A stretch of 64,000 bases of DNA from an uncultured bacterium (GCA_949296775.1 CASFQA010000003.1:47935-111934), one strand, 5' to 3'. Numbered from the stretch's first letter, positions 13,456 through 54,827 are shown. A program made the numbers and translations. Notes: generated from the letters alone by a model not told the origin.

Positions 13456-13466
13456 AGGGTCAATAT

Positions 13467-13483
13467 ATACCCCCGGGGGGTAT
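13467..13483. promoter_or_regulatory. Putative CsoR operator (GC-rich inverted repeat ATACCCCC-GGGGGGTAT)
   Basis: Matches the CsoR operator architecture TACCC-N-GGGTA known from Bacillus. It lies 12 nt upstream of csoR and overlaps the -35 position of the divergent plus-strand promoter. Confidence 0.6.
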
Positions 13484-13501
13484 GTGTCAAAGATTGTGCT
13501 T

Positions 13502-13510
13502 TGCTATAAT
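13502..13510 (+). promoter_or_regulatory. Extended -10 promoter element TGcTATAAT for the Ntn-hydrolase gene
   Basis: TGnTATAAT at 13502-13510, followed by a GGCGGAGG RBS and the ATG at 13529. Confidence 0.5.
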
Positions 13511-13528
13511 AAAGGCGGAGGAAAACAT

Positions 13529-25218: not shown

Positions 25219-25229
25219 GGAGAGCAAAT

Positions 25230-28200
25230 ATGAAAAAGAACAAATTGCTTATTCTCTCCGCCTCCTGCGCCCTTGGGCTTAGCCTTGTGGGCGCCGGGGT
25301 GGGAATCGCCCTCTCCGAGAAGGCAAACGCCGATACCCCGTCTAGCACGGTGTTCGACGATGTCCTTGGCGAAGACGCCATTGGCCAAAAGGTCAAACTC
25401 GGAGTCGGGGCAGAGACTTCTGACGTTACTCCGGAAATCGAAACCAATATCGGCGTCTTGGCGGTTGATGGCGAGATCGCTGGCACTAAAGACGTCCGGG
25501 TTTATTTCCGGCTCAATTCCATCAATGGAATTCAAACTGCTTCATTGACCCGCTCTGTCAAGACTGCGGCAGGGGAGGTCGTCAAGGAAGCGAGCACCCT
25601 TGACGTCGATTACGTTTATTCCTCCATCAATGGAGCGGAAGAGGCGACCTGGCTTGATATGGCCGCCGAGGAGCCGGCCGTTATCGCAACCGACGAGCTT
25701 CCCGCCGCCCCGTATTACCTCGTCTACACTTTGAAAAACATCCCGGCTGACCATTGGTTTGATCATGTGAACGTGGTCGCCAAGCTTAATGGAACCGAAG
25801 CTTCGCCAACTCAGGAATTTACCTATAATGTCTATGGGGCGATCGGCGATATTGCGGCTGGGGTTATTTTCGCTCCACGTCCTGATGTTGAGGGCGAATA
25901 TTACGTCAAGAGCTCCGGAGCCGCCGAGGCTGTCGTTCCAGAGAATTACTGCGAATACCATGGGGCGATTGCCACTTTGCTTGGCAAAGTGACATGTGTT
26001 GGCGATCCGACCTCAACTTCTGGCGGGTTTGAATATAAATCCTCATTAACTAGTCTGACTTTGCCCGATACCATTGACACATTCAACAAATGGTCTTTTA
26101 GTGGCGTAAGTTCTTTGAAATCTCTTACCCTTCCGCGAGATTTGACTACTGTTTTGCAGAGCTCGTTTAATAACATGGACTCGCTAGAAACCATTGAATA
26201 TAAAGCTCTCAATCTTACAACGGTTGATGACACTTTCGACAATGAGGGCTTGACCGTTAATGTTTCGGGTGCTGTAGAATCGTTGCCAGACGAATTGATT
26301 ACTGGCGAGGCGGAACTGGTCAATTATGAAGGAACGACGGCCGAATGGGAGGCCTTGAAGACCGATACCAACCAAAACAATGGGCTCTTCATCGACAACG
26401 TCATTTGTTCCGACACCGTCACCCATACCGTCACATTCCATCTTGGCGAAGGAACGATCGGCGATTTGACTGGCGATGTTGATTACACCGTCATCGAAGG
26501 CAAGCTGGCTGCTGACCCGGGCGATGCTTTGCTGCTGGGCATGGCGTTCAAGGGCTGGTATATGGATCAAGCCGGCGAAACTCCGTGGAATCCTGAAACT
26601 CCGGTTACCGGGGATTTGGATATCTATGCCGTGTATGAGGAGTTCGGACCGGGCGCATCGGCGAGCAATCCGATTACCCTAATCACTGGCGAAACCTATA
26701 CCGAGAACCTCGTTCCGGGCTATGAAAAAGTCTATCTGACTTACACTCATCCAGCGGATGCGGAAGCTGATTGGCGTTACCTTTACGTCGATGAGTCGGC
26801 CTGCGAGGAAAGTGAGGTTTCCACGGTTACCGCCAGTAACCTCGACGTGGCTATTGATGTCTACAAAGGGTCATTCGAAGGGGAAAAGGAAGAACTTGGC
26901 TCTAATGACTATGTTTTTGACAGCGCCGTTAAACCGATTGGCACTGACGGAGACATACGTTTCTTGGCTGAGCCGGGGCAGACTTATTGCTTCGTAATCG
27001 ATCCTTATTCAAATGATTACTATCAAGACCGAGTTTATTACGGCAGTCTTGCAATGAAATTCCTTGATTTCGAAGAGGATTCAATTGAAGCGGCTGGTCA
27101 GCTTGTCTACGGCGAAACTTCGACCGTTCGCCGCGACGACTATACTAGCTCAGTTATGACGCCTGCCACGGTCAAGGCCTATACCCCGACGGAAACTAAG
27201 GCGGTTGCCCTTAATATCGGCCGCACGAATTACACTTGGGCTGATGTTGAAGTTTACGATATCACCGATCCTGCAAACCCATCCTCTTTAGGGTCTGATT
27301 CGGATACCAGCGATTCGACGATGATTTTGAATCTTGAGGCCAACCATCGTTATATCTTGGTTGTCGACTTGAACGGGGCGACCAGTGATACCGACTATGT
27401 GACTTTGACAATTGGCGAGATTCCGGCGGGCGCCGATATCTCCAACCCGATCGCCATGACTATTGGTACGCCGGTGACCGTTAATTCCATTAATAGCGAA
27501 TACAGTTACTATTCTCTTACCTTGGATGAAGCGGCGGATTTGGCTTTCACCCTTAATGAAGGTTCATCTTCCTACGCCAAATACTTCAAGGTATACGATA
27601 GCACTGGCGAGCAAGTGGCAACCGCCACCGAAACCGGTGTGCAAAGTGGATGGGGTTGGGACACCACTACCACTTATGGCGGTGAGCTGCTTGAGCGTCT
27701 GCACCTGGAGGCTGGATCCTACGTTGTTGAAGTCGGCTATACCAGCAGCCTCTATAGTTACACCGGCTTTACCTTCCAAGTCGATTATGTCCAAGACGGC
27801 GAATACATCGGGCGTCCTGGCATTGCAAATCTCATTGAGGGCACTAACAACCTTAGGTCGACAAAAGATGGTTACTATTATAGTTATTCTCCGTCTGCTG
27901 ATATGGATGGAAAGTATCTTGTGATAGAGCTGCCCGATCTAGAAGGACTGGTCATTGACGTTGTCGATGCTGATGATGAAGTCATTAAGACAGTTTCAGC
28001 AGGCGGTCAAGTCGGCGTCAAATTAACTCAAGGCACAAACGTGATCTTTGTGCTTCGTGGCATTGATAACAATACGGTTTCTGTAAATGCCCAATTCGTC
28101 GATACCTATCAAGATGGACTCACCGAGGATACTGCCTATACTTTGGATAACGCTGGAATATTTGCTTCTTCTGACGGCGGCGACGGTTTTATATTTACTT

Positions 28201-29159
28201 TCTCCGTCGAGGAAACCGGTGATTATGTCTTTTATTCCAACACACCAAGGGATCTCGATTTAAATCGTCTCTATACTATTGAAGGCGGAAATGTCGACTA
28301 CGAGGGATTTAATGACGATAATGGCCGGCATTCTCAAACTGGTAACGAAGATGATTTTGCCGCTGAAGTTAATTTAGTGGCAGGCACTGTCTACTACGCT
28401 CGGATTGCCGGCTATGGTGGGACTGATGGTATGAGTGCTGATCAATTTTCCATTGGTTTGGACAAGATCATACCTGGTTCGTTGCTGTCTTCTCCGATCG
28501 ATAACGAGTTCCTTGGCAAGGATGCAACCACGTTGAGCGGAGGTGAAATTGCTACTTACTACCGTGATACTATGGATCAAGACGGCTGGTATACGATAAA
28601 GATCGATGATACCTCTTCCGGTACCTTGACTGTCTATAGTGGCACAACGGTTCTTGCTACGTTAATGGCTGGCGATTCTTATTTCTTGGAAGCTGAAGCC
28701 AATTCGACCGTGACTGTAAAAGTCGAAGGTGAGATCAGTTTTAGTTCGATTTATTCAACTACGGTTCAAAATGGCAGTAGCCGTGCTAACGCCGTTGAAC
28801 TCCCTTCCGACGGTCGCTTGCCATATACTTATTCTGGTTCTACCCAATCTTCCTATTGGATTAAATTCACCGTTCCGACCGACGGTACGTATGTCTTCTA
28901 TTCGGAAACTAATAAAGATTCAACAGCTTATGCATTCGACCCTTTTGTGAAACACATTTACGAGGGCGATTCGGCGACCGCTTTGGTTGAAGGAAGTAAC
29001 GACGATCCTTATGAAGGACATGGCAATAGTTACGATTCCCACGTTATTGTCGAACTTAAAGCTGGCGTAACCTATTATGCTGAGGTCCAAATGCCTGGTC
29101 CATATGACGATTACGCCGTAGAGTACATACTAGAACCAGTTTCCTCAACTGCCGCATAA
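25230..29159 (+). CDS. Giant surface protein with BspA-type leucine-rich repeats followed by multiple pre-peptidase C-terminal (PPC)-like domains
   Basis: Signal peptide MKKNKLLILSASCALGL. LRR block (SLTSLTLPDTIDTF...SLKSLTLPRDLTTV). At least 5 repeats of the PPC pattern (ANPITLITGETYTENL..., NPIAMTIGTPVTVNSINSEYSYYSLTL..., RANAVELPSDG...YWIKFTVPTDGTYVFYS). AAGGAG RBS before the ATG at 25230. Confidence 0.75.
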   Translation: MKKNKLLILSASCALGLSLVGAGVGIALSEKANADTPSSTVFDDVLGEDAIGQKVKLGVGAETSDVTPEIETNIGVLAVDGEIAGTKDVRVYFRLNSINGIQTASLTRSVKTAAGEVVKEASTLDVDYVYSSINGAEEATWLDMAAEEPAVIATDELPAAPYYLVYTLKNIPADHWFDHVNVVAKLNGTEASPTQEFTYNVYGAIGDIAAGVIFAPRPDVEGEYYVKSSGAAEAVVPENYCEYHGAIATLLGKVTCVGDPTSTSGGFEYKSSLTSLTLPDTIDTFNKWSFSGVSSLKSLTLPRDLTTVLQSSFNNMDSLETIEYKALNLTTVDDTFDNEGLTVNVSGAVESLPDELITGEAELVNYEGTTAEWEALKTDTNQNNGLFIDNVICSDTVTHTVTFHLGEGTIGDLTGDVDYTVIEGKLAADPGDALLLGMAFKGWYMDQAGETPWNPETPVTGDLDIYAVYEEFGPGASASNPITLITGETYTENLVPGYEKVYLTYTHPADAEADWRYLYVDESACEESEVSTVTASNLDVAIDVYKGSFEGEKEELGSNDYVFDSAVKPIGTDGDIRFLAEPGQTYCFVIDPYSNDYYQDRVYYGSLAMKFLDFEEDSIEAAGQLVYGETSTVRRDDYTSSVMTPATVKAYTPTETKAVALNIGRTNYTWADVEVYDITDPANPSSLGSDSDTSDSTMILNLEANHRYILVVDLNGATSDTDYVTLTIGEIPAGADISNPIAMTIGTPVTVNSINSEYSYYSLTLDEAADLAFTLNEGSSSYAKYFKVYDSTGEQVATATETGVQSGWGWDTTTTYGGELLERLHLEAGSYVVEVGYTSSLYSYTGFTFQVDYVQDGEYIGRPGIANLIEGTNNLRSTKDGYYYSYSPSADMDGKYLVIELPDLEGLVIDVVDADDEVIKTVSAGGQVGVKLTQGTNVIFVLRGIDNNTVSVNAQFVDTYQDGLTEDTAYTLDNAGIFASSDGGDGFIFTFSVEETGDYVFYSNTPRDLDLNRLYTIEGGNVDYEGFNDDNGRHSQTGNEDDFAAEVNLVAGTVYYARIAGYGGTDGMSADQFSIGLDKIIPGSLLSSPIDNEFLGKDATTLSGGEIATYYRDTMDQDGWYTIKIDDTSSGTLTVYSGTTVLATLMAGDSYFLEAEANSTVTVKVEGEISFSSIYSTTVQNGSSRANAVELPSDGRLPYTYSGSTQSSYWIKFTVPTDGTYVFYSETNKDSTAYAFDPFVKHIYEGDSATALVEGSNDDPYEGHGNSYDSHVIVELKAGVTYYAEVQMPGPYDDYAVEYILEPVSSTAA

Positions 29160-31606: not shown

Positions 31607-34252
31607 ATGAAACAAAAGAACCTCCTTTTGCTCCTGAGCGCCGTCGCCCTCACCGCTTGCGGACCGACTGGAAATTCCAGTTCGTCAAGCCAAACAGGCG
31701 ATGGTTCGGGCTCAGGGGATAGCCAAGTGTCGGATAGCGACACCGGCAGCACGACCACCCCGATTGGATCGGATTCCGACACCGGTGGCGGTTCGAGCGA
31801 AGAAACCACCTACACCATCCGGATCGAAGGGCTTCCGACCGGGGTCAGCGTCACCGTTGACAAAGATTCGGCGAAGCCTGGCGAAACCGTAACCGTTACC
31901 GTCACCGTCGAAGATGGATTCGAATTGGGCTATTTGCTTATCAACGGCGAGCCCATCACCGTCGGCAGCGACGGCAAGGCGACCTTCACGATGCCTAATC
32001 GTTCGGTCAGCATCGCCGTCACCGTCAACGCCATCGGGGAAATCACTCTCCGCGGGCAGATTTCCGCCGTCTTGAAAGAGGAAACCGAAGGTTCTGGCCT
32101 CTACGTCGCCCGCAATGTTGCGGTTCCGCAGTCGGCGGCTTTCTCCTTCATGGTCGGCACCACCGAACTCGACATGTCGGATATCGACTGGACTAAGTGC
32201 TTCGCGCCGCTTACTTACAACAATTCCGGCACTGGCGCCCTCAAGATCGAAGGTGGGGCGACCTATGACTTCTATTATGATGACAACGCCGATGAGGAAA
32301 CCGGCCGTTGCTACATCAAGAAAGTCAAACAGGATAAGCTTCCGGACAGCCCCGAGACCTTGAACAATCTCTTCCAAGGCATGGCTCGGAGCGAATCGAC
32401 CATGAATCCGGATGATGTCTTGAAGATCGAATACACCAACAAGGTCACCGGCATTGATTACGATTATCAGAACTACACCAACGGGTCCTATGCTGAGGCC
32501 CATAACCTCAAGGACGAAAACAAGCTTGTCGGCGTGGTTGATAAGAAAATTGATGGGGATGTCCTCTCGGTCGTCAATACCTATCTTGATGATGGCGAAT
32601 CCTACTATTCTGGCAATTATCAGAAGTATTCCGCTAAATACGGCATCGTCGACAAAACCACCGATATCGGCACTGGCTTAGGCCGTTATTCTCGCGTCCG
32701 TTCGATGGCCGATTACGAAGCTCACTTCTACGCCCATAACTATGAATCGATCTATTTCGACATCATGTATGCTTATTACATCGGTTATGACACCTCGGCC
32801 GACATCGGCACCGAAGGCTTAGGGCAATTCGAGCGGAAGATCGTCTCGACTGCGACGGCCGATGGATTCACCGTTGACCTCGATTCTTATCGTGAGATCG
32901 ACACTTCCAATTCCACCCAGGTCGATGAAGAAGATCGGGAGACCAGTTTCTATACCTACGCTATCGACTTCAAATTCGATACCGCCGGCCGCTTGCTGAC
33001 CCTTGATTTCGATGGCAAGGTCTACGATAGCGATGCTTATGACTTCGCGACCCACCAAATCATCGATGCCAATGATTTCACGACCATATTCGACATCACC
33101 ATCGCCTATACTTACGGCACTCCAACCGAGGCCAATACCCATGACGATTCCGCTTACTTCACCTCGAAGATGGGCGTCACCGTCCGGGATGAGGATCTTG
33201 GCGAGGAATATGCCGATAAGAACGCCATCCAGCGGACCAACAATGATTCCGATGCCGCGGTCAATGCCCATATGACTTTGACTTCGGACAAGGCGACTGC
33301 TGTCGATTTGGAGAACTTCACCATCATTTCGAGCTCCGATACCTCGATCATCGGGCCGCGTGGCGCTCTTGAGCCCTATACCTGGATTCCGAAGAAGAAA
33401 GGGACTGCCACCCTTACCATTGGCAATCCGGCTGTTCCTTCGGTCCCGCAGACTCAGATCGAAGTCGAGGTTGTCGATAACGCACAAGTCCGCTCCTTCT
33501 ATTTGACTGGAAAAGACGGTGTCTACTCGCCTTCTCAGGACCTTCTTGATACCGCCAACTCCTTCACCTTGAATGCCGGCACGACCCGGACCTTCCGGAT
33601 CATCGGTTCGCCGGATGATATTAACGTCCCCTGCACTCCCGTCTCCTCTGACCCGGATTTGCTCGAGGTCAGTTCCTATCAAGGGACGGATGGTTACTAC
33701 TATCTCTATGCTTCGGCTAAAAAAGCCGCAGTCACGCAAAAGACAAGGGTCACCATCACCATTGAATCCGACTACTATATGCCGGAATGGGCCGATTCTC
33801 CGTCAACCGTTGCCGTTGATATCCTGCCGGCTTCCGACTTCAATCCGATTGGCACTTGGTACTACATCACCGAGTACGACTCCAATTATGTTGCGACCGG
33901 TGTCAACAAGGATGTGGTCATTACGTTGAAGGAATACGATGGCACTGAAGCGACCGTATCGACCGTCGTCGACGAAAAGGGCAACACCTATAAGTTTGGC
34001 TTCAACGTCGATCCGGAAACCAAAACCTATTCCTACACTCATATCGATGGCGGCAACGTCTCCTATGTCTCAATTGTCGAAACCGAAGACGGCTACCTCG
34101 GCTTAGTTCTCGAAGCTGATGACGCTCAGTGGACCGGTCAAGACGAAGGCACCGATTCGACCATTGTCTTCGGCAACGTCGTTTATGACGAAGGAATGAT
34201 CATGAGCGAAGAATACGATGGCTTCGCTCCGGCCGCTGATTTCGCCGATTAA
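31607..34252 (+). CDS. Large surface lipoprotein with an Ig-like (Big-type) domain
   Basis: LLLSAVALTAC lipobox, Gly/Ser/Asp stalk, and a Big-like segment TIRIEGLPTGVSVTVDKDSAKPGETVTVTVTV. Confidence 0.65.
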   Translation: MKQKNLLLLLSAVALTACGPTGNSSSSSQTGDGSGSGDSQVSDSDTGSTTTPIGSDSDTGGGSSEETTYTIRIEGLPTGVSVTVDKDSAKPGETVTVTVTVEDGFELGYLLINGEPITVGSDGKATFTMPNRSVSIAVTVNAIGEITLRGQISAVLKEETEGSGLYVARNVAVPQSAAFSFMVGTTELDMSDIDWTKCFAPLTYNNSGTGALKIEGGATYDFYYDDNADEETGRCYIKKVKQDKLPDSPETLNNLFQGMARSESTMNPDDVLKIEYTNKVTGIDYDYQNYTNGSYAEAHNLKDENKLVGVVDKKIDGDVLSVVNTYLDDGESYYSGNYQKYSAKYGIVDKTTDIGTGLGRYSRVRSMADYEAHFYAHNYESIYFDIMYAYYIGYDTSADIGTEGLGQFERKIVSTATADGFTVDLDSYREIDTSNSTQVDEEDRETSFYTYAIDFKFDTAGRLLTLDFDGKVYDSDAYDFATHQIIDANDFTTIFDITIAYTYGTPTEANTHDDSAYFTSKMGVTVRDEDLGEEYADKNAIQRTNNDSDAAVNAHMTLTSDKATAVDLENFTIISSSDTSIIGPRGALEPYTWIPKKKGTATLTIGNPAVPSVPQTQIEVEVVDNAQVRSFYLTGKDGVYSPSQDLLDTANSFTLNAGTTRTFRIIGSPDDINVPCTPVSSDPDLLEVSSYQGTDGYYYLYASAKKAAVTQKTRVTITIESDYYMPEWADSPSTVAVDILPASDFNPIGTWYYITEYDSNYVATGVNKDVVITLKEYDGTEATVSTVVDEKGNTYKFGFNVDPETKTYSYTHIDGGNVSYVSIVETEDGYLGLVLEADDAQWTGQDEGTDSTIVFGNVVYDEGMIMSEEYDGFAPAADFAD

Positions 34253-34827: not shown

Positions 34828-37020
34828 TTAAGCTTGAGCGGAGCTCGAGGAATCCTCGGCCGGCCCCTCTTCGTCCTGCACTGGCATGGTGGACTTATAG
34901 GGGTTTTCCATATAGGCCTTGGCATCCGCCGGGACGTTATCGACCCCGACGTCGCTATAGGAGATGTGGATGTTGTACTTGATGTCGGTCGAATAGTCGA
35001 AGGTGACGTCCATGACGAGCTCGTCTTCGCTGACGGTGAAGTAGGAGTCGCAGTAGCTATCGAGGTATCCGGTAACGCCAAGGTAATAGGCGGTCCAGAA
35101 GGCATAGGACTGGTTGACGTGGAAGAGGAACATATAGAATATGCCGCTTAAGCCCATATCAGCCCCGCCTTGCATGTAGGAGAAGTTCCGGTCCGGCCCA
35201 TAGGAGTTGAAGTAGTACTTGCCATCTTGCAGATCGGTGAAGGAGGCAATTTCGAATAACGTCTTTCCGCCGGTTTCTTCAGTGATTTCTTTCGCATGAC
35301 CGAAGGTGGCGGTGGGGACGAGGATCGAATCGGCCCAAATATCCTTAATCTTGGCGTTGTCCGTGCTTTGGGTCGCGACGTTGAAGCCGTTGCCGGTCGT
35401 TTCGTCGTAGATGCCGGTCGCTTCGTGGAAGCTGCCTTGGTGGATGAATTTAAGGTCGGTGTGGTTGTTTTGGATGTTGGCATCGCCCATGCTAAGCGAA
35501 GTATCGCAATAGACGTTGTTGTCGTTGAGATTGCCATAACGGGTGTAGATGGCGTTCTCGTTGGCGTAGGACAAGACCGAGATCGAGGAGAAGATATCCT
35601 GATGGGTGTCGGTGAAGGTCATGTTCTCCGGGGTTTCGGTCTGAACGCCATTTTCGTACCAAGCGGCGTCCATCTTCATGGTGTAGGACTTCTTCTCAGC
35701 CATATTGTCGAAGAACTTGTCGAAGGCGGAGACGTCTAGGGACGGGACTTCGGTCGGGGCCTTGACCCAGGAGTCGGCGGCGGTGAAGCCGGCTTTATTG
35801 AAGTCGGTTACCTGGATATAAGCCGGGAATTCCTGAATGGTGCCGGCAGTGCTCGGCAATTCAAGGGTATCGATATAATTGATTTCCTCTCCGATGATGG
35901 CCGGGAAGAAGGTGATGTAGGGATTGGTGTCTAAATCAGCGACGTAGACCATCGCGCCGTTGATGATCTCGCCATAGAGTTCTTCGCAGTAATAAACGAT
36001 GTTGCTCCAGGCTTCGGGGGCGATGGCATCGAGCATGTTGGTCAAGGAATTCGATCCGTCTTCCTCGATGTAATACATGCCGGAGGACTCACCGCGGAAA
36101 ATCAGTTCGCGGAAGTTTGAGGCCGGGACGTCGAAGGAACCTAACCCTTCGATTTCCTTGCTGGCCCCATAACCATAGCCGACTTCGAAGGTTGCCTCGT
36201 TGATATCGAACCAAGTCGCGCCGGTGGCATCGGGAGACGCTTCGACGGTGAAGTTCCGCCAAACGTCGTTTTGGGTGTCGCGGATTGAGCCGGCTAAGGT
36301 ATAAGTCTGGGTGGTTTCGTTGGAGTCGACCGGATAATAGAAATAATCATCGGTGACGGCATAGACGCCGGAGATCGCCGAATAGGAGATCCAGTTATCC
36401 TTGATCGAGGAGTAGAAATTATTGAAGGCGACTTTGTTTTCCGAGATGACGTTGCCGGTTAAGGCCCGGACGGTACGCCCAGCGTGGAGGGTGACGGTGT
36501 ATTCGCCGCATTCAAGGCCATAGAAGGTTTTGCCGTTGATTTGGACGACGTCGGGGGTCGAGGTGGTGAGATACCAAGAGCCGACGCCGCTTACTTCGAC
36601 GTAATCCTCGACATTGATGCCGTTTTCTTTGCCGGGGAGGATTTCGGTCGGAAGAGCGTCGTAATCGACGGTGACTTTGCCGGAAGTGGCGCTGTCGGGG
36701 TCGACGACGGTGATCTTGTATTCCTCTTCGTTGGTCCCGTTGGAGACGGTGATGGTCACTTCGCCCGGGGCGATGGGGGTCACGTTGCCGTTCTCGTCGA
36801 CGGTGGCGATGTTCTCGTCAGAGACGGTCCAGGTCAATTCGCCGTCCAATTTGGTTTTGATTTGGCCGGTGGAGCCGAGATTGATCGAGGAACCGTTCTC
36901 GATGATGACCATCGAAGAGCTGGGATCGTCAGCCGGATCGCAGGAGGTGGCCAGCATCGGGGCTCCGAGAGCGAGGACCGCCGCTAAGCTTAGCAGAAGG
37001 TTCTTTTTCATTGTTTTCAT
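34828..37020 (-). CDS. Surface lipoprotein with Ig-like domain(s), unknown function
   Basis: MKTMKKNLLLSLAAVLALGAPMLATSC lipobox. GAAAGG RBS upstream of the ATG at 37020. The ORF-track start at 37089 lacks an RBS. Confidence 0.65.
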   Translation of the reverse strand: MKTMKKNLLLSLAAVLALGAPMLATSCDPADDPSSSMVIIENGSSINLGSTGQIKTKLDGELTWTVSDENIATVDENGNVTPIAPGEVTITVSNGTNEEEYKITVVDPDSATSGKVTVDYDALPTEILPGKENGINVEDYVEVSGVGSWYLTTSTPDVVQINGKTFYGLECGEYTVTLHAGRTVRALTGNVISENKVAFNNFYSSIKDNWISYSAISGVYAVTDDYFYYPVDSNETTQTYTLAGSIRDTQNDVWRNFTVEASPDATGATWFDINEATFEVGYGYGASKEIEGLGSFDVPASNFRELIFRGESSGMYYIEEDGSNSLTNMLDAIAPEAWSNIVYYCEELYGEIINGAMVYVADLDTNPYITFFPAIIGEEINYIDTLELPSTAGTIQEFPAYIQVTDFNKAGFTAADSWVKAPTEVPSLDVSAFDKFFDNMAEKKSYTMKMDAAWYENGVQTETPENMTFTDTHQDIFSSISVLSYANENAIYTRYGNLNDNNVYCDTSLSMGDANIQNNHTDLKFIHQGSFHEATGIYDETTGNGFNVATQSTDNAKIKDIWADSILVPTATFGHAKEITEETGGKTLFEIASFTDLQDGKYYFNSYGPDRNFSYMQGGADMGLSGIFYMFLFHVNQSYAFWTAYYLGVTGYLDSYCDSYFTVSEDELVMDVTFDYSTDIKYNIHISYSDVGVDNVPADAKAYMENPYKSTMPVQDEEGPAEDSSSSAQA

Positions 37021-37186
37021 CCTTTCTTTTTTGGCTATTTGCTGATGAATTAGCCTGTCTTTCATTCGCGTAGGTGAATGAACGCCCATATACCATACGG
37101 GCCAAATTTAAAAATGCAAGGATAAGTTGCTTTTTATTAATAAAAAGAGCCGAGAAACGATCTCGGCTCAATCGGTTTAACCCTTA

Positions 37187-46099: not shown

Positions 46100-48024
46100 T
46101 TATGAATAAGTACAAAACCATCGATTACCCCGCTTCGGTCGGGGAGAAAGAAGCGGGGAAGGAACCGGTTCTTTCGGTTCGAAACCTGGCCATCTCCTTT
46201 AAAACCGACGAGGGGATGGTCAAAGCCGTCCGCGGCGTCTCCTTCGATTTATATAAAGAGGAGACCCTTTGCATCGTCGGCGAGTCCGGTTCGGGCAAAT
46301 CGGTCACCAACAAAACCATCATGGGCATCCTCCCCAAAAGCGCCCGCATCGAATCGGGCTCGATCGTCTATGAAGGCGAGGATTTGACCCAGGTTTCCGA
46401 GGACGAATTCCATAATATCCGGGGGACTAAGATCGGGATGATCTTCCAAGACCCCCTTTCCTCCTTGAACCCGATCATGAAGATCGGCAAGCAAATCACC
46501 GAGGTCATGCTCATCAACGGGCATCACCTGAAGAACCTTTTCAAGGACATCGTCAACGACGTCTTCATCAAGCTGAAGAACGATGAGCGTTTGCTTGAGC
46601 TCGCCAAAAGCGATTTGAAGCATTCGCTTGCCGATATCAAGGCCAAGATCGCCCAGGAAAAGAAAAACGCCAAGGCCGAGGAACGGACGCCGAACCTCGA
46701 GCCTTTGCTAGCCGAACAGGCCAAGGCCAAACAAGCCTTCATCGACAAGAAAGCCGAATTGAAGAACGTTATCGTTATGGATAAAGCGGCTTACGCGGCG
46801 AAGAAAAAAGAAGCGAGGGCGGCGGTTAAAGCCAAGAAGACGGAACTCTTGAAGGAGCATTGGGCCAACTTGAAGCCTATTTGGAAGTCCTTCTTCGACA
46901 AAGGCCCCTCCCAGCAGGCTAAGGCCAAGATCGCCGAGGCGAAAACGCGTTATCAAGAGGCCATGGCTAAGCCAGAGAACAACCCGAGCGAAGATGAACT
47001 CATCGACCTTTACGCCTCCATCGTCAACCCGAAGGAGAAGCAGGTCGCGGAGGTTAAAAAGAAACTCGAGGCTTTATCCGCCGATAAGGGGAATGAAGCG
47101 GGGCTGCTTGCCTATAACGAATGCCGGCTAGCCCTTCGCGACGCCAAAAAAGAAGCCGCTTCCGCCCGAAAAGAGGCGAAGAAGGCGATGCATGAGAGGA
47201 AGTATGGGGCCCGCGACGCTTATCGCGCCGAGGTCCGGCCGCTTTATCGGTCTTTGTTGACCTTCCCGGCCTTTAAGAAAGCCTATGATGATTTCCTGCT
47301 CGAGCATCGGCGTTATCTTTCCTGCCTCCGGGTCACCCATAAGGAAGCCAAGGACCGGGCCTTGAAGATCATGGCCGAAGTCGGCATCCCTCAACCGGAA
47401 CGGCGGTTCTATCAATACCCGTTCGAGTTCTCCGGCGGCATGCGCCAACGGATCGTCATCGCCATCGCCTTGACCGCCCATCCGGACATTTTGATCTGCG
47501 ATGAGCCGACCACCGCCCTCGACGTCACCATCCAAGCCCAGATCCTCGAATTGATCAACGAGCTGAAGGCCAAGCACCATATGTCGGTCATCTTCATCAC
47601 CCATGACTTAGGGGTCGTCGCCAACATGGCGGACCGGGTCGCGGTTATGTATGCGGGGAAAATCGTCGAATACGGGAAGGCCGATGAGGTCTTCTATTCG
47701 CCCGCCCATCCTTATACCTGGGCTTTGCTCTCCTCGATTCCCGACGTCGATTCGAAGGAAAAACTCGAGGCGATTCCCGGCACCCCGCCGAACATGCTTT
47801 TCCCGCCGAAAGGCGATGCCTTCGCCGCCCGAAGCAAATACGCCCTCGGGATCGATTTCAAGGAAGAGCCCCCGATGTTTCAGATTTCCCCTTCCCATTA
47901 CGCCGCCACCTGGCTGCTTGATGAAAGGGCGCCGGAACATAAGATGCCCTCGATCGTCGCGACCCGGATCAAGAATTCCTTGAAACGGGCCGGCAAGACT
48001 TCCGGAGGAAAGAAAGATGAATGA
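46096..48024 (+). CDS. oppD: Oligopeptide ABC transporter ATPase OppD with a Lys/Ala/Glu-rich insertion of about 250 aa
   Basis: Walker A GESGSGKSVT, then a coiled-coil-like insert, then the signature FSGGMRQRIVIAIAL, ILICDEPTTALD and the H-loop ITHDLG. The start may be the GTG at 46096 or the ATG at 46102. Confidence 0.85.
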   Translation: MIMNKYKTIDYPASVGEKEAGKEPVLSVRNLAISFKTDEGMVKAVRGVSFDLYKEETLCIVGESGSGKSVTNKTIMGILPKSARIESGSIVYEGEDLTQVSEDEFHNIRGTKIGMIFQDPLSSLNPIMKIGKQITEVMLINGHHLKNLFKDIVNDVFIKLKNDERLLELAKSDLKHSLADIKAKIAQEKKNAKAEERTPNLEPLLAEQAKAKQAFIDKKAELKNVIVMDKAAYAAKKKEARAAVKAKKTELLKEHWANLKPIWKSFFDKGPSQQAKAKIAEAKTRYQEAMAKPENNPSEDELIDLYASIVNPKEKQVAEVKKKLEALSADKGNEAGLLAYNECRLALRDAKKEAASARKEAKKAMHERKYGARDAYRAEVRPLYRSLLTFPAFKKAYDDFLLEHRRYLSCLRVTHKEAKDRALKIMAEVGIPQPERRFYQYPFEFSGGMRQRIVIAIALTAHPDILICDEPTTALDVTIQAQILELINELKAKHHMSVIFITHDLGVVANMADRVAVMYAGKIVEYGKADEVFYSPAHPYTWALLSSIPDVDSKEKLEAIPGTPPNMLFPPKGDAFAARSKYALGIDFKEEPPMFQISPSHYAATWLLDERAPEHKMPSIVATRIKNSLKRAGKTSGGKKDE

Positions 48025-49417
48025 AGAAAAGCGCCTCCAAATTCAGTCGGAGAAAGCCGAACTGAAAGAAAAAGTCGACCAAGCTAAGGCGGCTTTGCGG
48101 GATTTTAAGGTCAAATACAAAGGAGTGGAGCTCGATGAGTCCCTCCGGTATGAGCGGAAAAAGCTCAACGATGATCTCCATGAGGCCAAAAGAGCCCTCT
48201 CTTTAGTCGGGGTGTCTTATGACCCCTCCTTGATGGAGAACCACGTTATCTTAGACGTCCGCCACTTAAAGGAGTTCTTTAAGTCCGGCGAATACAAAAC
48301 CAAAGCCGTCCATGATATCTCCTTCCAAATCCACGAAGGGGAATGCTTTGGCTTAGTCGGGGAGTCGGGCTGCGGCAAAACCACCACCGGACGCTGCATC
48401 ATCGGCCTTTATCCCATCACTTCCGGCTCGATCTACTACAAGGGGTACCGGATTTCCGCCGGGAGCCGCTGGAACGAAAAGGAAATCAAGTGGACCCGGA
48501 TCCGCGACAATTCCCAAATCAAGGTTTTGAAAAGGGAACTCCGCGACAAACTAAGCGAATCGGCCAGCGAGGAGGAAAAAGACTCGCTAAGGCAGGAATA
48601 CGGGGCGAAAATCGCCGAGATCAAAGCCCATACCGATTCGGTCGTCTCGGTTCAGAAAGAGAAAATCTCCCAAATCCGTTACGACAACAAGCATTCCTCG
48701 TCCAAACTCCGGAACGAGATCCAGATGATCTTCCAGGATCCGATCGATTCCCTCGATCCCCGGATGACGGTCGAGGACATCATCGTCGAAGGGCTGCACA
48801 TCCAAGGGCAGTATGACAAGGAGGAGAATCGGCGGGCGGTCGAGCGGGTTTTGCGCCAAGTCGGCTTAATCCCCGAATACGCCTCCCGTTATCCCCATGA
48901 GTTCTCCGGCGGGCAAAGGCAGCGGATCGGCATCGCCCGGGCCCTTATCATGAACCCCAAGCTGCTTATTTGCGACGAGCCGATCTCGGCCCTCGACGTC
49001 TCGATCCGGGCCCAGGTCTTGAATTTGCTTAACGAGATCAAGGATTCGATGAAGCTGACGATGCTTTTCATCGCCCATGACCTTTCGGTCGTCAAGTATT
49101 TCTGCGACCGGATTGGGGTCATGTATTTCGGGGATATGGTTGAGCTCGCCTCCTCGGAAGAGCTCTTCCGCCACCCGCTTCATCCCTATACCAAAGCCTT
49201 GCTCTCAGCCATCCCTAAGCCCGACCCCTTGTCGGAGAAGAACCGGGTCCGGCAGGTTTATAACCCAGCCTCGACCCACGATTATTCCAAGCAAAAGCCC
49301 TCCTTCCGGGAGTTGATCCCCGGCCATTTCGTCCTTTGCAACGACGAGGAGGAGAAGCGTTACCTCAAAGAGATAAAACGGATCGATTCCAAGAAAGGAG
49401 ATAAGGCCAATGATTAA
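48017..49417 (+). CDS. oppF: Oligopeptide ABC transporter ATPase OppF (with insertion)
   Basis: Walker A GESGCGKTTT, signature FSGGQRQRIGIARAL, LLICDEPISALD, IAHDLS. GGAGG RBS. 8-nt overlap with oppD. Confidence 0.85.
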   Translation: MNEEKRLQIQSEKAELKEKVDQAKAALRDFKVKYKGVELDESLRYERKKLNDDLHEAKRALSLVGVSYDPSLMENHVILDVRHLKEFFKSGEYKTKAVHDISFQIHEGECFGLVGESGCGKTTTGRCIIGLYPITSGSIYYKGYRISAGSRWNEKEIKWTRIRDNSQIKVLKRELRDKLSESASEEEKDSLRQEYGAKIAEIKAHTDSVVSVQKEKISQIRYDNKHSSSKLRNEIQMIFQDPIDSLDPRMTVEDIIVEGLHIQGQYDKEENRRAVERVLRQVGLIPEYASRYPHEFSGGQRQRIGIARALIMNPKLLICDEPISALDVSIRAQVLNLLNEIKDSMKLTMLFIAHDLSVVKYFCDRIGVMYFGDMVELASSEELFRHPLHPYTKALLSAIPKPDPLSEKNRVRQVYNPASTHDYSKQKPSFRELIPGHFVLCNDEEEKRYLKEIKRIDSKKGDKAND

Positions 49418-50106: not shown

Positions 50107-50739
50107 ATGAAAGCCTTGATATTCGATTTAGACGGAACCCTCTGGGATTCCACCGTCCCGGTGGCTTCCTGCTACGAGGCGGTGGGGCGGAGGCTGCTCG
50201 GCCCATCTTTCCGTTTCACCCCGGATGACGCTCGTTCGTTAATGGGAAAGACGATGGATGAAATCGCCGCCGCGATCGCGCCGAAAAGCTATTCGCCTAC
50301 CCAAATCCAATCCTTGGGAAAAGCCTTCTTCCAGGCGGAAAACGCCTATTTGGCCGACCATCCGGGGACGTTATACCCCTTTGTCGGGGAAACGCTCTTT
50401 AAATTGAAGGAGCGGTATCGCCTCTATATCGTCTCCAATTGCCAAGCCGGCTATATCGAGACCTTCCTGCCTTTGCTTCCCGAAGGGACGTTTCTTTCCC
50501 ATATGTGCTTTGACGATACCAAGAAGCCCAAATGGTTCACCATTCGCTCCTTGATGGATAGGGAAGGGATCGACGAAGCGATCTATATCGGGGACACCGC
50601 GAGGGATGAGGAAGCCTCGGAAAAGGCCGGCCTCCCTTTCATCCATGCCGAATACGGTTTTGGAAACGCCCTCCATCCAGCGGGGCGGATCGCATGTTTT
50701 GCCGACTTGCCCAATATCCTATTGAGTCTTGGCTTCTAG
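50107..50739 (+). CDS. HAD-superfamily phosphatase (subfamily IA)
   Basis: Motif I FDLDGTLWDS, motif II S/T, motif III/IV K...IYIGDTARDEEAS. Confidence 0.75.
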   Translation: MKALIFDLDGTLWDSTVPVASCYEAVGRRLLGPSFRFTPDDARSLMGKTMDEIAAAIAPKSYSPTQIQSLGKAFFQAENAYLADHPGTLYPFVGETLFKLKERYRLYIVSNCQAGYIETFLPLLPEGTFLSHMCFDDTKKPKWFTIRSLMDREGIDEAIYIGDTARDEEASEKAGLPFIHAEYGFGNALHPAGRIACFADLPNILLSLGF

Positions 50740-50755
50740 CCTTTAAGATATTGTT

Positions 50756-51139
50756 ATGGAAAAAACCGATAACCCTTTCAAGGCCGACCGTTACCTCTCC
50801 TCCTCTCAACAGGAGATCGTCCATTCGATGATGCCGGAGCTCAATCAAGCCACCGATGCCGACCAATGTCATCGGACCATAGATTTGATCGATGGTTTCG
50901 TCAAGGCCAATAAAACCAGCGATTTGGTATACGAGAATGCCCTTAAGGCTTTCCAAGGGGCTGAGGATTCGCTTCGTTCGGCCGCCCTTTTCCCACCCGA
51001 TGCCGGCTCGATGCTCGTCCTTAACCTCATCGCCAGCTATATGTCGATTATGTTTTTGGTTGGGGCCTTATCGGCGGACGATTTGAAGAAGATGGCGCCG
51101 GTTATGAACGGCTTTAACGATAAACTGCCGACCGCCTAG
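50756..51139 (+). CDS. Hypothetical protein
   Basis: ORF only. Helical composition. Confidence 0.4.
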   Translation: MEKTDNPFKADRYLSSSQQEIVHSMMPELNQATDADQCHRTIDLIDGFVKANKTSDLVYENALKAFQGAEDSLRSAALFPPDAGSMLVLNLIASYMSIMFLVGALSADDLKKMAPVMNGFNDKLPTA

Positions 51140-51145
51140 CTGAAT

Positions 51146-51173
51146 TTGCCGAAATTTTCGCCGATTGTATATT
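51146..51173 (+). promoter_or_regulatory. Sigma-70-like promoter of the 4-gene operon (-35 TTGCCG, 16-nt spacer, -10 TATATT)
   Basis: Hexamers lie 45-75 nt upstream of the AGGAGG RBS at 51208 and the ATG at 51222. Confidence 0.5.
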
Positions 51174-51221
51174 GCCTCTTTTTCCCTTTTAGGGGAAAAT
51201 TAGAAGACAGGAGGCGCGTCA

Positions 51222-51491
51222 ATGGACAATCAAGCCAAAGGATTTGCCGAATTGGCTAGTGGTTTAGCCGATAGGACCGCAAGGTTAGCCGGCTCTGCCG
51301 ATGAGGCGATGCATGAAGGTTTTTCCCGTTACATTGAGGCGCAAAAGGCCACTATTTCCGAGGCTGAGCGAATCAGCTCATCCGTCAGCGAGGAGATCGA
51401 AACCCTCGCAAAAAGCCGTTTTGAGGTGGCTTTAGAGGAAGGGAAGAAAGCCATCGCGGAGGCTTTTGCCACCCAGGGGGTTAGCTTATGA
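51222..51491 (+). CDS. Small alpha-helical protein, first gene of the unknown 4-gene operon
   Basis: AGGAGG RBS 8 nt upstream. 89 aa. Its stop overlaps the next start (ATGA). Confidence 0.5.
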   Translation: MDNQAKGFAELASGLADRTARLAGSADEAMHEGFSRYIEAQKATISEAERISSSVSEEIETLAKSRFEVALEEGKKAIAEAFATQGVSL

Positions 51492-51805
51492 AAGAGCCAA
51501 TTCGGGAGACTAATGGCAATATGGCTGATTTGCCTTCCCAAATCAACCAACTCGAATCCGATAACGCGGCCTTGGAAATCAAAATCAAAAAGCTGAAATC
51601 GGAGTTGAATGGGAAATTATTCCAACAGAGCAAAGACGATATTCGCCGCTTGAACGAGCAGCTAACCGCTTATTCGGAGAAAGAGATCGCCATCATGGAC
51701 GATTTCTCTGCCGCCCTCCGTCATTTAAACGATTCGGTTTCCGATCTGCAGGCTATTTTATCCGTCGAGAAGGGTGAGGAAGAGCAACCGGAGGTCGAAG
51801 GATGA
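51488..51805 (+). CDS. Coiled-coil protein, second gene of the operon
   Basis: Heptad-like LESDNAALEIKIKKLKSELNGKL. Its stop overlaps the next start (ATGA). Confidence 0.5.
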   Translation: MKEPIRETNGNMADLPSQINQLESDNAALEIKIKKLKSELNGKLFQQSKDDIRRLNEQLTAYSEKEIAIMDDFSAALRHLNDSVSDLQAILSVEKGEEEQPEVEG

Positions 51806-53691
51806 GCAACGAAATGGATAATCGGCTGCTGGAACTGAAGCAGCTCAACCTCTCCTTATCCACCGACTTGCTCGATTTGGAGAAGCTTTCCGCCCATTGC
51901 GATTTCCAATTGCCGAAATCAAAGGCGGCTTTGGCGGAGATGTCGCTTTCGAAGGAAAAGCTTTTGCTTTGCGACGCCAAGCTAGCCCAAGCCAAACAGG
52001 ACCTTGAGGATTCAAAGGAGAACGTCAAATTCCTCTCCTCTTTCGTCAAAGTCATATGCCGTCAGATCATGGCGGTTGGATCGCTCACCAATAAAGGGCT
52101 TTTCGATTCCGCTTCCGACATATTGAATTCCTTATCGTCCCATGCCAACGATCTCTCAGCCCCTTGGACGGCTGATTTGAAGGAACAGATCGAGGAATCG
52201 ATTGGCTATCAAAGGGTCAAGCTGGTTTTGCTTCGGGCCCGCCATAACGAAAAGCATGGCCTTCCTCCCTGCGGGGAGGCGGAAATCGACGCCTTATTGG
52301 ATGATATCGTCGATTTGGGCATGAAATACCATTCGGAAAGCGAAAGGGCTGGCTTGCTCAACGAGGCTTTGGTCATCAAGCTCAATATCTTGGCCTCCCG
52401 CGAGGAAGCAACCATCCATGATATGGATAGCCTTGAAGCCATCATCGCCGAACGGGATCATTATTTGTCTTTATCGAGCGGGGCCGATTGCCATGTCGAG
52501 GAGGCGAAAAAACGCCTATATAAAGTCATTCTCGACGAATTCAACGAGCTTTCCTTCCTTTACTTCGACGATGAGCCGAACTTCGATAAGGCCTTAGCGG
52601 TCTTCAATCAAAAAGGGAGCATCGAGAAAGAGGACATCGCCCATCACGCTTATAAAGAAGCGGAGGACGACAAAGCCTTCCGGATCGCCTTCCTTTGCCA
52701 AATGGCTTTGCGGAAAGACGTTTCCGGCTACAAAGACCAAGTCATCGTCTTGTCCTCGAAAGCCGAGGAGGGCGATATCGATTCGCTCGATCTATTGGCC
52801 CATTTCCTCTCGATGCCGTTAATCGATTCGACGAAATTCGATTTGACGATCAAATCGCTTAAGACTTTGTCTTTTGAGCAGAAGATCCATTTCCTGGCCT
52901 TCGCCATCAAGCTAGGCTTGGACGAGGAGAAGCAAGTCCTGCTTTTCCAATTCATCGAGCAGCTGCGGATCGGGGCTCGCCGGGGCGATCTTGAGAAGAT
53001 GGCCCCCGACCTCTCTTACCTCGATTTCCATATCGCCCCCTCCTTGAAGGAAGATTGGGCGGGGATGAAGGGGGACTTGCTCCGCTCGCCGAGAGCCCAT
53101 AAGATCGTGACCAAGACCCAAGTGGCGGAACTCCGGGTTTTCGCCGGCGAGGATCCGGCGTCTTTATCGGCCCCGTTAGGCAAAAAACTCAAATCCGCCT
53201 ATGTCCGTTCCTGGGATATGCTCAAGTATGTCCTCTATTGGTTTTTCGCCATCCCCTTGCCGTTGGTCTTATCGGGGGTCGCCTATTATTTGATGTACCA
53301 TTTCGGGGTCGCCGATTATATCGGCTCCGCCATCTTCGCTTTGCCATTCGGCCTTTGCCTGCTTCTATTGGCCTTAGTCGGTCACGCTTTCTACGGCCGG
53401 GACGAGAAAGGGTCGATGTGGTATCGAAGGGCCCTCGGCCTCGTTTCCGTCTCTCTCCTCGCCGGCTCGGCCGTCATCTTCGCTTTGCCGCCTCGTTTGC
53501 TTTTCGGGGCGGAGATCATCGCTTTGCCGGCCTTGATCGATGGGATCCTCGCCTATTTGCTTTCCGTTTTGTTCTTTAAGGAAAGGAATCGGGCCCTTTC
53601 TTATGCGGTCCTCGGGCTATTCATCGTCGCCCTCGGGGTGGCGACCGGCTTCATGGTCTATGTCATGATGTCGGGCCTGACGGTTTCTTGA
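51802..53691 (+). CDS. 629-aa protein with an N-terminal coiled-coil/helical region and four C-terminal TM helices, third gene of the operon
   Basis: No known motif recognised. The C-terminal 130 aa are strongly hydrophobic (four helices). TGATG overlap with the next gene. Confidence 0.55.
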   Translation: MSNEMDNRLLELKQLNLSLSTDLLDLEKLSAHCDFQLPKSKAALAEMSLSKEKLLLCDAKLAQAKQDLEDSKENVKFLSSFVKVICRQIMAVGSLTNKGLFDSASDILNSLSSHANDLSAPWTADLKEQIEESIGYQRVKLVLLRARHNEKHGLPPCGEAEIDALLDDIVDLGMKYHSESERAGLLNEALVIKLNILASREEATIHDMDSLEAIIAERDHYLSLSSGADCHVEEAKKRLYKVILDEFNELSFLYFDDEPNFDKALAVFNQKGSIEKEDIAHHAYKEAEDDKAFRIAFLCQMALRKDVSGYKDQVIVLSSKAEEGDIDSLDLLAHFLSMPLIDSTKFDLTIKSLKTLSFEQKIHFLAFAIKLGLDEEKQVLLFQFIEQLRIGARRGDLEKMAPDLSYLDFHIAPSLKEDWAGMKGDLLRSPRAHKIVTKTQVAELRVFAGEDPASLSAPLGKKLKSAYVRSWDMLKYVLYWFFAIPLPLVLSGVAYYLMYHFGVADYIGSAIFALPFGLCLLLLALVGHAFYGRDEKGSMWYRRALGLVSVSLLAGSAVIFALPPRLLFGAEIIALPALIDGILAYLLSVLFFKERNRALSYAVLGLFIVALGVATGFMVYVMMSGLTVS

Positions 53692-54827
53692 TGCATCTAT
53701 TCTTCGATTACCATCCCGACCGGGACGTCATTGTCTATTGCCTTTCCGACGAAAGGCTTTTGTGTTTGGAGAAAGGGGAGGCGGCCCTTGGGTCGGAACA
53801 ATTCGGCGCGCTTATAACCGAATACCCTATTGTCAGCTATGACGTTGAGCCCTTTTTCCTGCGGCTAAGGGCGTTGAATTTCCCCAAACGCTTTTCCTGT
53901 TTCGACTTGAAGCGGCTTTTCCGAGCTTATTATGGAGTGGCGGAGGACATTCCCTATGAGGAAGCCAAAACCCAGTTCGACGACCAAGCCCTCCTGCAGG
54001 GCTGCGAGGCTTTTTCCTTCTTCGTCCACCTCTGCGATTTCGAGGCGGAGGATGCCGCTTGCCTATTGGGGGTCGATTACGGTGACTGCCTGCTTTCTTT
54101 CCCCGAATGCGGCGAGGCCTTCGCCTCATTGAATCTGTTTAAGCAAGCTCGGGAGGAAAGGATATCCGCTTTCGATCCTAAGCGAATAAAACGGCTTTTG
54201 TTTTTCGATTTGGAATGCGCGAACACCGACGGGAATATCGGGAAGATATGCGAGTTCGGCGGGGTTTATGCCTCTTTATCCATGCAAATCGAAGGGGAAA
54301 TCGAAATGCTTATCAATCCCGAGTCAACTTTCAAAGTGAATCGGCTCGGGCGGGGTTTGCAGCTGTTTTATCGTTCCGCCGATTACGAACGCTCGCCCTC
54401 TTTCCCCCAGCAATACGGCCGTCTAAAAAGCGTTTTGGAAGATGAAGAGACTTTGCTGGTCGGCTTTGCTTCCGGCAATGACTTCCGCTTCCTAATGGGC
54501 GATTGTTGGCGTTATCGCCTTCCGGGATTCGATCTATTGGGATTGGACGTTCAGCCTTTGGCCGACCGCTTGCTGGGATCGAAGAGATCGCTTTCGTTGG
54601 AAGACGCTTTATTCGGGCTTGGGGGCAGCCTGCCGAATGGGCTTACCCCTCATCGGGCCCTCGATGACGCCAAATTGACTTTGTTGGTGGCTCAGAAAGC
54701 TTTTCAGCGGGTTAAAGGCGGCTTGCTCGGCTATTTGGAAAACAAAAGCGAGGGCTTCATCACCTCGCTTCATGTCGATAAGATATTGGAGCACCCGCTT
54801 CCGAAGCTCCGTTATTGGTCGGATTGA
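53691..54827 (+). CDS. Protein with a C-terminal DEDDh 3'-5' exonuclease domain (DnaQ/RNase T/KapD-like) and an unknown N-terminal domain of about 180 aa
   Basis: Exo motif I FFDLECANT, motif II GNDFRFL and motif III HRALDDAKL (the His-containing DEDDh variant). Confidence 0.6.
   Translation: MHLFFDYHPDRDVIVYCLSDERLLCLEKGEAALGSEQFGALITEYPIVSYDVEPFFLRLRALNFPKRFSCFDLKRLFRAYYGVAEDIPYEEAKTQFDDQALLQGCEAFSFFVHLCDFEAEDAACLLGVDYGDCLLSFPECGEAFASLNLFKQAREERISAFDPKRIKRLLFFDLECANTDGNIGKICEFGGVYASLSMQIEGEIEMLINPESTFKVNRLGRGLQLFYRSADYERSPSFPQQYGRLKSVLEDEETLLVGFASGNDFRFLMGDCWRYRLPGFDLLGLDVQPLADRLLGSKRSLSLEDALFGLGGSLPNGLTPHRALDDAKLTLLVAQKAFQRVKGGLLGYLENKSEGFITSLHVDKILEHPLPKLRYWSD

Follow-up and report, generated by a model that had tools for sequence, protein, structure and literature searches.

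The 64,000-nucleotide stretch of DNA studied here (hereafter the window; uncultured bacterium, GCA_949296775.1 CASFQA010000003.1:47935-111934) carries, at positions 51146-54827, a promoter-like site followed by four tightly packed plus-strand genes, numbered 1 to 4 below. Genes 1 and 2 encode small helical proteins, gene 3 a large membrane protein and gene 4 a DEDDh 3'-5' exonuclease. Genes 1-3 belong to a stable block that also takes in an upstream gene for a HAD-IA family hydrolase and a gene for a 127-aa protein (p127), whereas the position after gene 3 is filled by unrelated genes in different lineages. On balance, we lean towards reading HAD-p127-gene 1-gene 2-gene 3 as a lineage-restricted, housekeeping-type module in which gene 3 would act as a membrane scaffold. 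Complex formation, the scaffold role and a link to membrane or cell organisation are what we infer from protein architecture together with the phyletic pattern.

Four overlapping plus-strand open reading frames (ORFs) span 51222-54827, as an earlier note on this DNA had described, and all have conserved homologues; they are therefore real genes. Gene 1 (51222..51491, +, 89 aa) encodes an acidic, helical protein with a conserved motif, ADEAxxxG...Y, and the AGGAGG reported in front of it is present 7 nt 5' of its ATG. Gene 2 (51488..51805, +, 105 aa) encodes an acidic coiled coil with a conserved C-terminal motif, E.A.M..F......ND; its start codon overlaps the gene 1 stop codon (ATGA at 51488), and the two other junctions overlap as they had been described (ATGA at 51802 and TGATG at 53689). 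Gene 3 occupies 51802..53691 (+, 629 aa). For gene 4 (53688/53691..54827, +), which had been given as 379 aa (the length from a TTG at 53688), the ORF holds, but the start codon is most likely the ATG at 53691, giving 378 aa, because homologues open with MYLFFDY and a cluster 98% identical to gene 4 is 378 aa long. Residues of gene 4 are numbered below from the TTG at 53688. The gene ends 1 nt from a flavin-reductase gene that is convergent with it.

Genes 1-3 lie outside every named family in Pfam, NCBIfam, PADLOC, PHROG and PDB, in agreement with the earlier reading, which had recognised none. They produced sub-threshold coiled-coil noise at most in Pfam, NCBIfam, PADLOC and PHROGs (e.g., in PADLOC, where gene 2 yielded this kind of noise alone, with JetC at 0.0029 and LmuB at 0.0058). 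A Pfam scan of all 41 gene 3 family members likewise returned no family match, and the gene 3 family profile searched against PDB sequences matched only influenza HA2 and designed coiled coils. No profile assigned the genes to a known housekeeping complex. The cluster is an undescribed set of protein families made from generic building blocks.

An AlphaFold2 (AF2) model of gene 3, made from a nine-sequence alignment, was confident and all-helical (predicted local distance difference test score, pLDDT, 80.8). Residues 1-245 (51802..52536, +) are cytoplasmic long helices and coiled coil, with modelled helices at 4-30, 38-97, 121-151 and others, and alignments show them to be the least conserved part of the protein. 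Residues 246-455 (52537..53166, +) form an alpha-solenoid resembling tetratricopeptide repeats (TPR), modelled as a compact helical-repeat domain at residues ~250-450 with pLDDT of about 90; this is the best conserved region of gene 3 (ALRKD.S.Y.D, LIDSTKFD, LDEEKQ). A near-invariant juxtamembrane motif, LLRSPxAHK (residues 426-438, nt 53077-53115), terminates the solenoid region. Hydropathy, loop charges and the AF2 helices place five transmembrane (TM) helices in residues 476-621 (53227..53664, +), at 476-498, 507-525, 544-562, 572-590 and 603-621, rather than the exactly four that had been counted. The loop charges (K/R-rich, positive-inside) are consistent with an N-in/C-out topology.

Positions that are invariant or near-invariant in 41 diverse gene 3 sequences concentrate at the cytoplasmic membrane face. 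D534, E535, K438 and G460 do not vary; R428, S429, G532 and S538 are near-invariant, and A432, within LLRSPxAHK, belongs to the same invariant or near-invariant set. The invariant D534 and E535 lie in the cytoplasmic TM2-TM3 loop, GRDE(K/R)GS (residues 532-538, nt 53395-53415, +). These residues, the five TM helices and a HAD gene adjoining in most lineages examined would suit a different reading, in which the gene 3 product works as an enzyme or transporter in the membrane, together with the HAD protein, in envelope lipid, glycolipid or precursor metabolism, and genes 1 and 2 are regulators. We consider this unlikely. Gene 3 has no enzyme or transporter similarity in Pfam, NCBIfam or PDB; Foldseek with the gene 3 model gave no match at E<=1e-3, and such fold matches as were found are generic and limited to helical-repeat scaffolds. 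In addition, the HAD protein is itself generic, and in one distant locus (L060) two genes stand between HAD and gene 1.

Gene 3 is a polytopic protein with its N-terminus inside and five TM helices, whose ~470-aa cytoplasmic part runs from a coiled-coil stalk into the TPR-like solenoid; in the scaffold reading that we prefer, it would serve as a membrane-anchored scaffold or adaptor. The products of genes 1 and 2, both small, acidic and helical, may pack onto the long helices at the gene 3 N-terminus. The solenoid, LLRSPxAHK and the GRDE(K/R)GS loop may together make up a site for client binding or regulation on the membrane's cytoplasmic side. The likely role of such an assembly would be to organise the membrane or the cell in a bacterium without a wall. 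Membrane TPR/coiled-coil adaptors such as LapB/YciM, BamD, Sec72 and the EzrA-type division scaffolds have no sequence relationship to gene 3, and they are anchored by a single N-terminal helix, whereas the anchor of gene 3 is a bundle of five TM helices at the C-terminus, which includes an invariant DE loop. In having two small helical partners dedicated to it, this cluster is also unique when compared with those adaptors, and the features of a LapB/YciM-like protein (TPR repeats detectable in the sequence, a TM helix at the N-terminus and a rubredoxin domain at the C-terminus) were not found in gene 3.

The gene 3 family is narrow. Word-based searches among 5.8e9 clusters turned up only 6 clusters with gene 4 as query and 9 with gene 3, and an exhaustive HMMER search with a gene 3 profile found 43 clusters (50% identity) among 1.84e9 representative proteins. 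Nearly all family members are full-length (~590-640 aa), with few fragments, and a repeat homologue search with a 41-sequence gene 3 profile gave no additional members. Gene 3 relatives that carry a name are either 'hypothetical protein [Bacilli bacterium]' or come from metagenome-assembled genomes (MAGs) of Ca. Enteromonas/Alloenteromonas only. Compared with uncultured Bacilli MAGs, the window showed 86-87% identity in gene 3 and 75-92% in the neighbouring genes, and window gene 3 was 48-55% identical to that of two named Alloenteromonas species. The window comes from an uncultured member of the gut Bacilli, of order RFN20 and family CAG-826, close to Ca. Alloenteromonas. Ca. Enteromonas (GTDB UBA733) has been placed in the same order and family, and the Ca. 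E. pullicola genome is 1.2 Mb with 57% GC (PMC8035907). Members of CAG-826 are predicted to be deficient in peptidoglycan and non-sporulating (PMC10868615).

About 25 related loci, all from uncultured RFN20/CAG-826 gut Bacilli and designated by L numbers here, were available for comparison; the contig search for related loci recovered near clades only. Window proteins were mapped by tblastn onto 24 loci, and gene calls were inspected for further members. The stable block is HAD-(p127)-gene 1-gene 2-gene 3, and it occupies one chromosomal position across lineages down to ~20% identity. The high-GC Alloenteromonas clade (GC 0.53-0.59; L004-L008, L011-L015) has the order Opp-mem222-HAD-p127-g1-g2-g3-g4exo-(FlavRed)-NaH-(GNAT)-mem208-P-type ATPase; these loci are collinear with the window, with GNAT absent from L007, L008 and L013. 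The low-GC Enteromonas clade (GC 0.30-0.36; L001-L003, L009, L010, L016-L021) has HAD-g1-g2-g3-mem242, with neither the exonuclease nor p127. Distant members at 20-31% identity (L022, L023/L024, L060-L063) have HAD-p12x-g1-g2-g3, with the two extra genes already mentioned in L060. Positional orthologues of p127, gene 1 and gene 2 in these distant members align with shared motifs; around the block, MscS(-) and a ~180-aa gene(-) recur upstream, and mem208/p212 and the P-type ATPase recur downstream.

Gene 3 and the HAD gene diverge roughly in step, with identities of 87 > 55 > 48 > 34% for gene 3 and 70 > 58 > 62 > 45-50% for HAD. Operon GC is 0.49-0.56, the same as that of the flanks. Repeat scans of the window revealed no bounding repeats, mobile-element boundaries or CRISPR array, and searches of phage and plasmid collections gave no matches. 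The fixed position, co-divergence, normal GC, lack of repeats and lack of phage or plasmid matches together amount to vertical inheritance at a fixed locus, and make the cluster a housekeeping-type module rather than a mobile one. A fixed position in all relatives, which the earlier note had listed as telling against its own proposal, is essentially what was seen.

In the Enteromonas sub-lineage represented by L001, genes 1-3 are flanked by helix-turn-helix (HTH) regulators, NERD, an ATPase_2/STAND-like gene and a type I restriction-modification (R-M) system (HsdM/HsdS), at L001:1-7400 and 10694-17887, and HAD no longer adjoins the module there. Variable or defence genes seem to have inserted locally here, around a core that is itself stable.

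What follows gene 3 is variable. The DEDDh exonuclease fills this slot in the window's clade only. In the low-GC clade the slot holds a multi-TM protein of 242-255 aa (mem242) that begins 3-5 nt after gene 3, or up to ~85 nt after it in L020/L021, and that is kept within the clade at 27-41% identity between sub-lineages. Examples of mem242 lie at L001:9891-10619, L009:11908-12675 and L010:2866-3594 and have no family match; a mem242 homologue was sought among the membrane proteins of the window and none was found. Elsewhere the slot holds DUF2188 and DUF1508 proteins (L022), SbcD and SbcC 54 nt after gene 3 (L060:7965-12184), JetA/JetB/JetC starting 100 nt beyond P0030, the gene 3 homologue there (L062:7883-13116), or GNAT, GH88 and an HD protein (L061), or else there is no same-strand gene. 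In L023/L024, SbcCD lies ~3 kb downstream of gene 3 (L023:14015-18267). SbcD (Metallophos) and SbcC may be the ancestral neighbours, replaced by the DEDDh exonuclease in the window's clade. The L062 trio, in which JetC matches PADLOC at 2.8e-233, is followed directly by a P-type ATPase, with no adjacent JetD called, and is either an incomplete Wadjet (type I) or an MksFEB-like condensin. Since the slot after gene 3 varies in this way, the exonuclease is not a defining component. Gene 4 is predicted from the gene arrangement to be co-expressed with gene 3 in the Alloenteromonas clade, where the 1-nt stop/start overlap is kept in all Alloenteromonas-type loci.

That conserved overlap bears on a further alternative, namely that there is a clade-specific coupling in which gene 3 recruits the exonuclease to the membrane, with the gene 4 N-terminal domain docking on the TPR-like solenoid. 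Under this alternative genes 1-3 would tether SbcCD, JetABC and DEDDh machines generally, for DNA uptake, surveillance or chromosome anchoring. TPR-like domains typically serve client docking, and SbcD-SbcC, JetA-B-C and the more distant SbcCD of L023 all lie after gene 3. However, the slot in other lineages holds genes unrelated to DNA (mem242, DUF2188, GNAT or GH88), gene 4-like proteins occur elsewhere without gene 3, and the adjacency may simply be ancestral synteny, or a stable core that has a variable island next to it. We therefore regard the coupling as doubtful. Its strongest form, in which genes 1-3 and p127 make up a new membrane docking platform of wall-less RFN20 bacteria that recruits SbcCD, JetABC and DEDDh machines interchangeably, seems quite improbable to us. 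As for a system of the SMC/Mks/Wadjet kind, which would have an SMC-like ATPase head together with kleisin and KITE partners, no ATPase is encoded in the window operon, and JetABC is a neighbour in L062 only.

Several points weigh against the scaffold reading, which we nevertheless prefer. As judged from the model, the scaffold role has a generic helical-repeat fold as its sole basis, and genes 1-3 have no specific homology that points to any function. The invariant D534, E535 and K438 at the membrane face could mark a catalytic or transport site. The gene 3/gene 4 stop/start overlap is kept in at least 5 species, which is compatible with a functional link in that clade. Finally, DNA-processing machines occupy the slot in three other lineages (SbcCD twice, JetABC once); this is a hint of some role connected with DNA, which one would not expect from the scaffold model.

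The C-terminal half of gene 4 is a DEDDh 3'-5' exonuclease domain with intact catalytic motifs, as had been proposed. The domain is DnaQ/PolC-exo-like (54189..54716, +), with D174, E176, D265, H322 and D327 as catalytic residues, and the Exo I DxE, Exo II D and Exo III Hx4D motifs are all present. D174/E176 (FFDLECAN), D265 (GNDFRFL) and H322/D327 (HRALDDA) are invariant in six homologues of 41-76% identity. The Pfam RNase_T profile (PF00929) scored 24.1 bits on gene 4 against a cut-off of 24.0, a borderline match. Other matches were to phrog_192, 'DNA polymerase exonuclease subunit' (3.5e-12), the PADLOC DEDDh profile (9e-8), PDC-S48 (2.6e-4), the latter two covering the exonuclease domain alone, and the T. 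maritima PolC exonuclease domain, PDB 2p1j (8e-4). The putative fold neighbours of the domain are those expected of an RNase H-like exonuclease (ERI1, PolC-exo, TREX1 and epsilon). An AF2 model of gene 4 from a five-sequence alignment was poor (pLDDT 47.5). To judge by its motifs, gene 4 is predicted to be a DEDDh exonuclease with an intact active site.

Gene 4 resembles the DnaQ/PolC-exo-like DEDDh exonucleases in its three Exo motifs and its invariant D, E, D, H and D, and differs from them in reaching only the Pfam threshold and in having its own N-terminal domain of ~165 aa (53691..54182, +). This domain, which the earlier note could not place, has no Pfam match, and no family was found for it here either. 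The possibility that it is a degenerate copy of the exonuclease domain was rejected (hhalign probability <1%).

Scanning metagenomes with the gene 4 alignment gave 35 loci. One (L025) falls in the Alloenteromonas clade, and the remaining gene 4-type loci have no gene 3 relative nearby. Among these, L026 encodes a 411-aa two-domain relative with 30% identity over residues 51-360, in which the N-terminal domain is again fused to this type of exonuclease; it has no gene 3 neighbour and overlaps an amine-oxidase-like gene. The other full-length relatives examined place the exonuclease domain first, followed by a C-terminal extension of 150-230 aa, with the exception of L029 (548 aa), which has an N-terminal extension. 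Thus gene 4 differs from most other members of its own subfamily. A signature, LLFFD[LI]EC...GKICEFG, is common to gene 4 and this gut-metagenome subfamily. The gut-metagenome proteins of L027-L059 (e.g., L039:5989-6942, L048:5998-7197 and L057:5989-7203) are 314-404 aa long, with an N-terminal DEDDh domain carrying the gene 4 signature; annotation was found for their exonuclease domain only, and the C-terminal extension of 150-230 aa is unassigned. The gene 4 relatives were also considered as the PADLOC candidate PDC-S48, which was rejected on domain-level matches of <=28 bits. Gene 4 belongs to a wider DEDDh family of gut metagenomes, a member of which was captured by one clade in the slot after gene 3.

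These results bear on the earlier proposal of a four-gene anti-phage or abortive-infection system, with a membrane coiled-coil sensor and the DEDDh exonuclease as effector. In its favour are the PADLOC DEDDh and PDC-S48 matches of the exonuclease domain, the overlap of the gene 3 stop with the gene 4 start, JetABC directly after gene 3 in L062, and the type I R-M, NERD and STAND-like ATPase genes around the module in L001. The PADLOC matches, however, are confined to the exonuclease domain, with none for genes 1 and 3 and only noise for gene 2, and the components do not all match the models of one known defence system in PADLOC-DB v2. The likeness to Cas2-DEDDh and PDC-S48 extends to the exonuclease domain only; no cas genes or CRISPR array were found in the window, where the flanks are transporters, HAD and flavin reductase. 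The idea of one system with a nuclease effector finds no support in the phyletic comparison, in which the exonuclease is confined to the high-GC Alloenteromonas clade and replaced elsewhere; most lineages retain genes 1-3 without the nuclease. The neighbourhood variation expected of a defence island was not seen either. The same HAD-adjacent position recurs in most of the ~25 loci and in every lineage sampled, the cluster co-diverges with housekeeping neighbours, and normal composition, the lack of a mobility signature and the lack of phage or plasmid matches all speak against anti-phage behaviour. We consider a defence system very unlikely.

A module like those of the type VII secretion system (T7SS), with genes 1 and 2 as Lap-like partners, gene 3 as a membrane-active LXG-like toxin and the fourth gene as immunity, appears extremely improbable. 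The likeness is one of architecture only: the T7SS LXG/Lap1/Lap2 loci share the gene order of two small helical proteins (~90-105 aa here), a protein with a long-helical N-terminus and a variable fourth gene, which in the low-GC clade encodes a multi-TM protein. The cluster differs from them in that no LXG (PF04740), WXG100 or Lap (DUF3130/DUF3958) profile matched at E<=1 among the 41 family members and genes 1 and 2. Moreover, the C-terminal 5-TM domain is conserved family-wide rather than polymorphic, unrelated fourth genes accompany this one C-terminal domain, the locus occurs as a single copy at a fixed position, and no EssC-like gene was found in any flank examined. Both the four-gene defence model and the LXG/T7SS-like model fail at points where they can be tested.

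Upstream of the four genes, the HAD-IA family hydrolase (50107..50739, +, 210 aa; Pfam HAD_2 1.3e-19) is probably the first gene of the conserved block. Its NCBIfam matches are generic, i.e., phosphoglycolate-phosphatase-like and HAD-IA, and all fall below equivalog cut-offs. It lies directly upstream of the cluster in L004-L015, L009, L010, L020-L024, L061 and L062, is displaced in L001/L016/L017/L060 and is not upstream in L063. The acidic p127 (50756..51139, +, 127 aa) has no Pfam or NCBIfam match. Hydropathy marks one strongly hydrophobic helix at residues 87-105. Since the distant p127 orthologues have an Asp inside it, this helix may be buried and not a membrane helix. In a tblastn map, the high-GC clade and the distant lineages keep p127 in its place after HAD and before gene 1, and in the distant lineages the positional orthologues align; the low-GC Enteromonas clade lacks it.

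The promoter-like site described in the earlier note is there (TTGCCG-16 nt-TATATT, 51146..51173, +, 9/12 matches), but such sites are no more frequent than chance would provide, with 2 found in the region and 2.8 +/- 1.6 expected from shuffles; it may be an internal promoter. OppF, mem222, HAD and p127 lie upstream in the same orientation, at spacings of -8 to 82 nt, and the p127-gene 1 gap is only 1-15 nt in relatives. Transcription therefore probably takes in more genes than these four.

Elsewhere in the window, the OppD- and OppF-like ATPases at 46096-48024 and 48017-49417 are 642 and 466 aa long, compared with 513 and 575 aa in the Ca. A. pullicola orthologues, and the OppD Pfam ABC_tran match falls in two separate stretches. 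The implication is that these ABC ATPases have gained insertions or extensions specific to the lineage, partly coiled-coil-like. Very large ORFs occur at 25212-29159, 34828-37089 (-), 23233-25218 and 31607-34252. Among them, a 1315-aa protein has BspA-type leucine-rich repeat (LRR) and Listeria-Bacteroides repeat domains and a 753-aa protein has Big_2, and those of 661 and 881 aa have no Pfam match; a gut bacterium without a wall probably carries them on its surface. A tandem repeat at 8126-8189 (period 11/23 nt, 2.8-5.6 copies) is intergenic between divergent genes, an AMP-binding/GNAT fusion (-) and a 478-aa ORF (+).

These findings remove a false lead, in that the nuclease does not serve a conserved four-gene defence system as its effector. 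The presence of SbcCD, JetABC and a DEDDh exonuclease in the slot after gene 3 raises a testable question about membrane-linked DNA processing; if a docking platform did exist, it would couple the membrane in a new way to DNA surveillance, DNA uptake or the anchoring of the chromosome. RFN20/CAG-826 bacteria are common in the gut but uncultured; their genomes are reduced and they are predicted to have no cell wall, and membrane and cell-organisation functions in wall-less bacteria are poorly understood. A cluster of 3-5 genes that holds one position across the lineages sampled and is found nowhere else in 1.84 billion representatives is likely to have a lineage-defining function in membrane or cell organisation.

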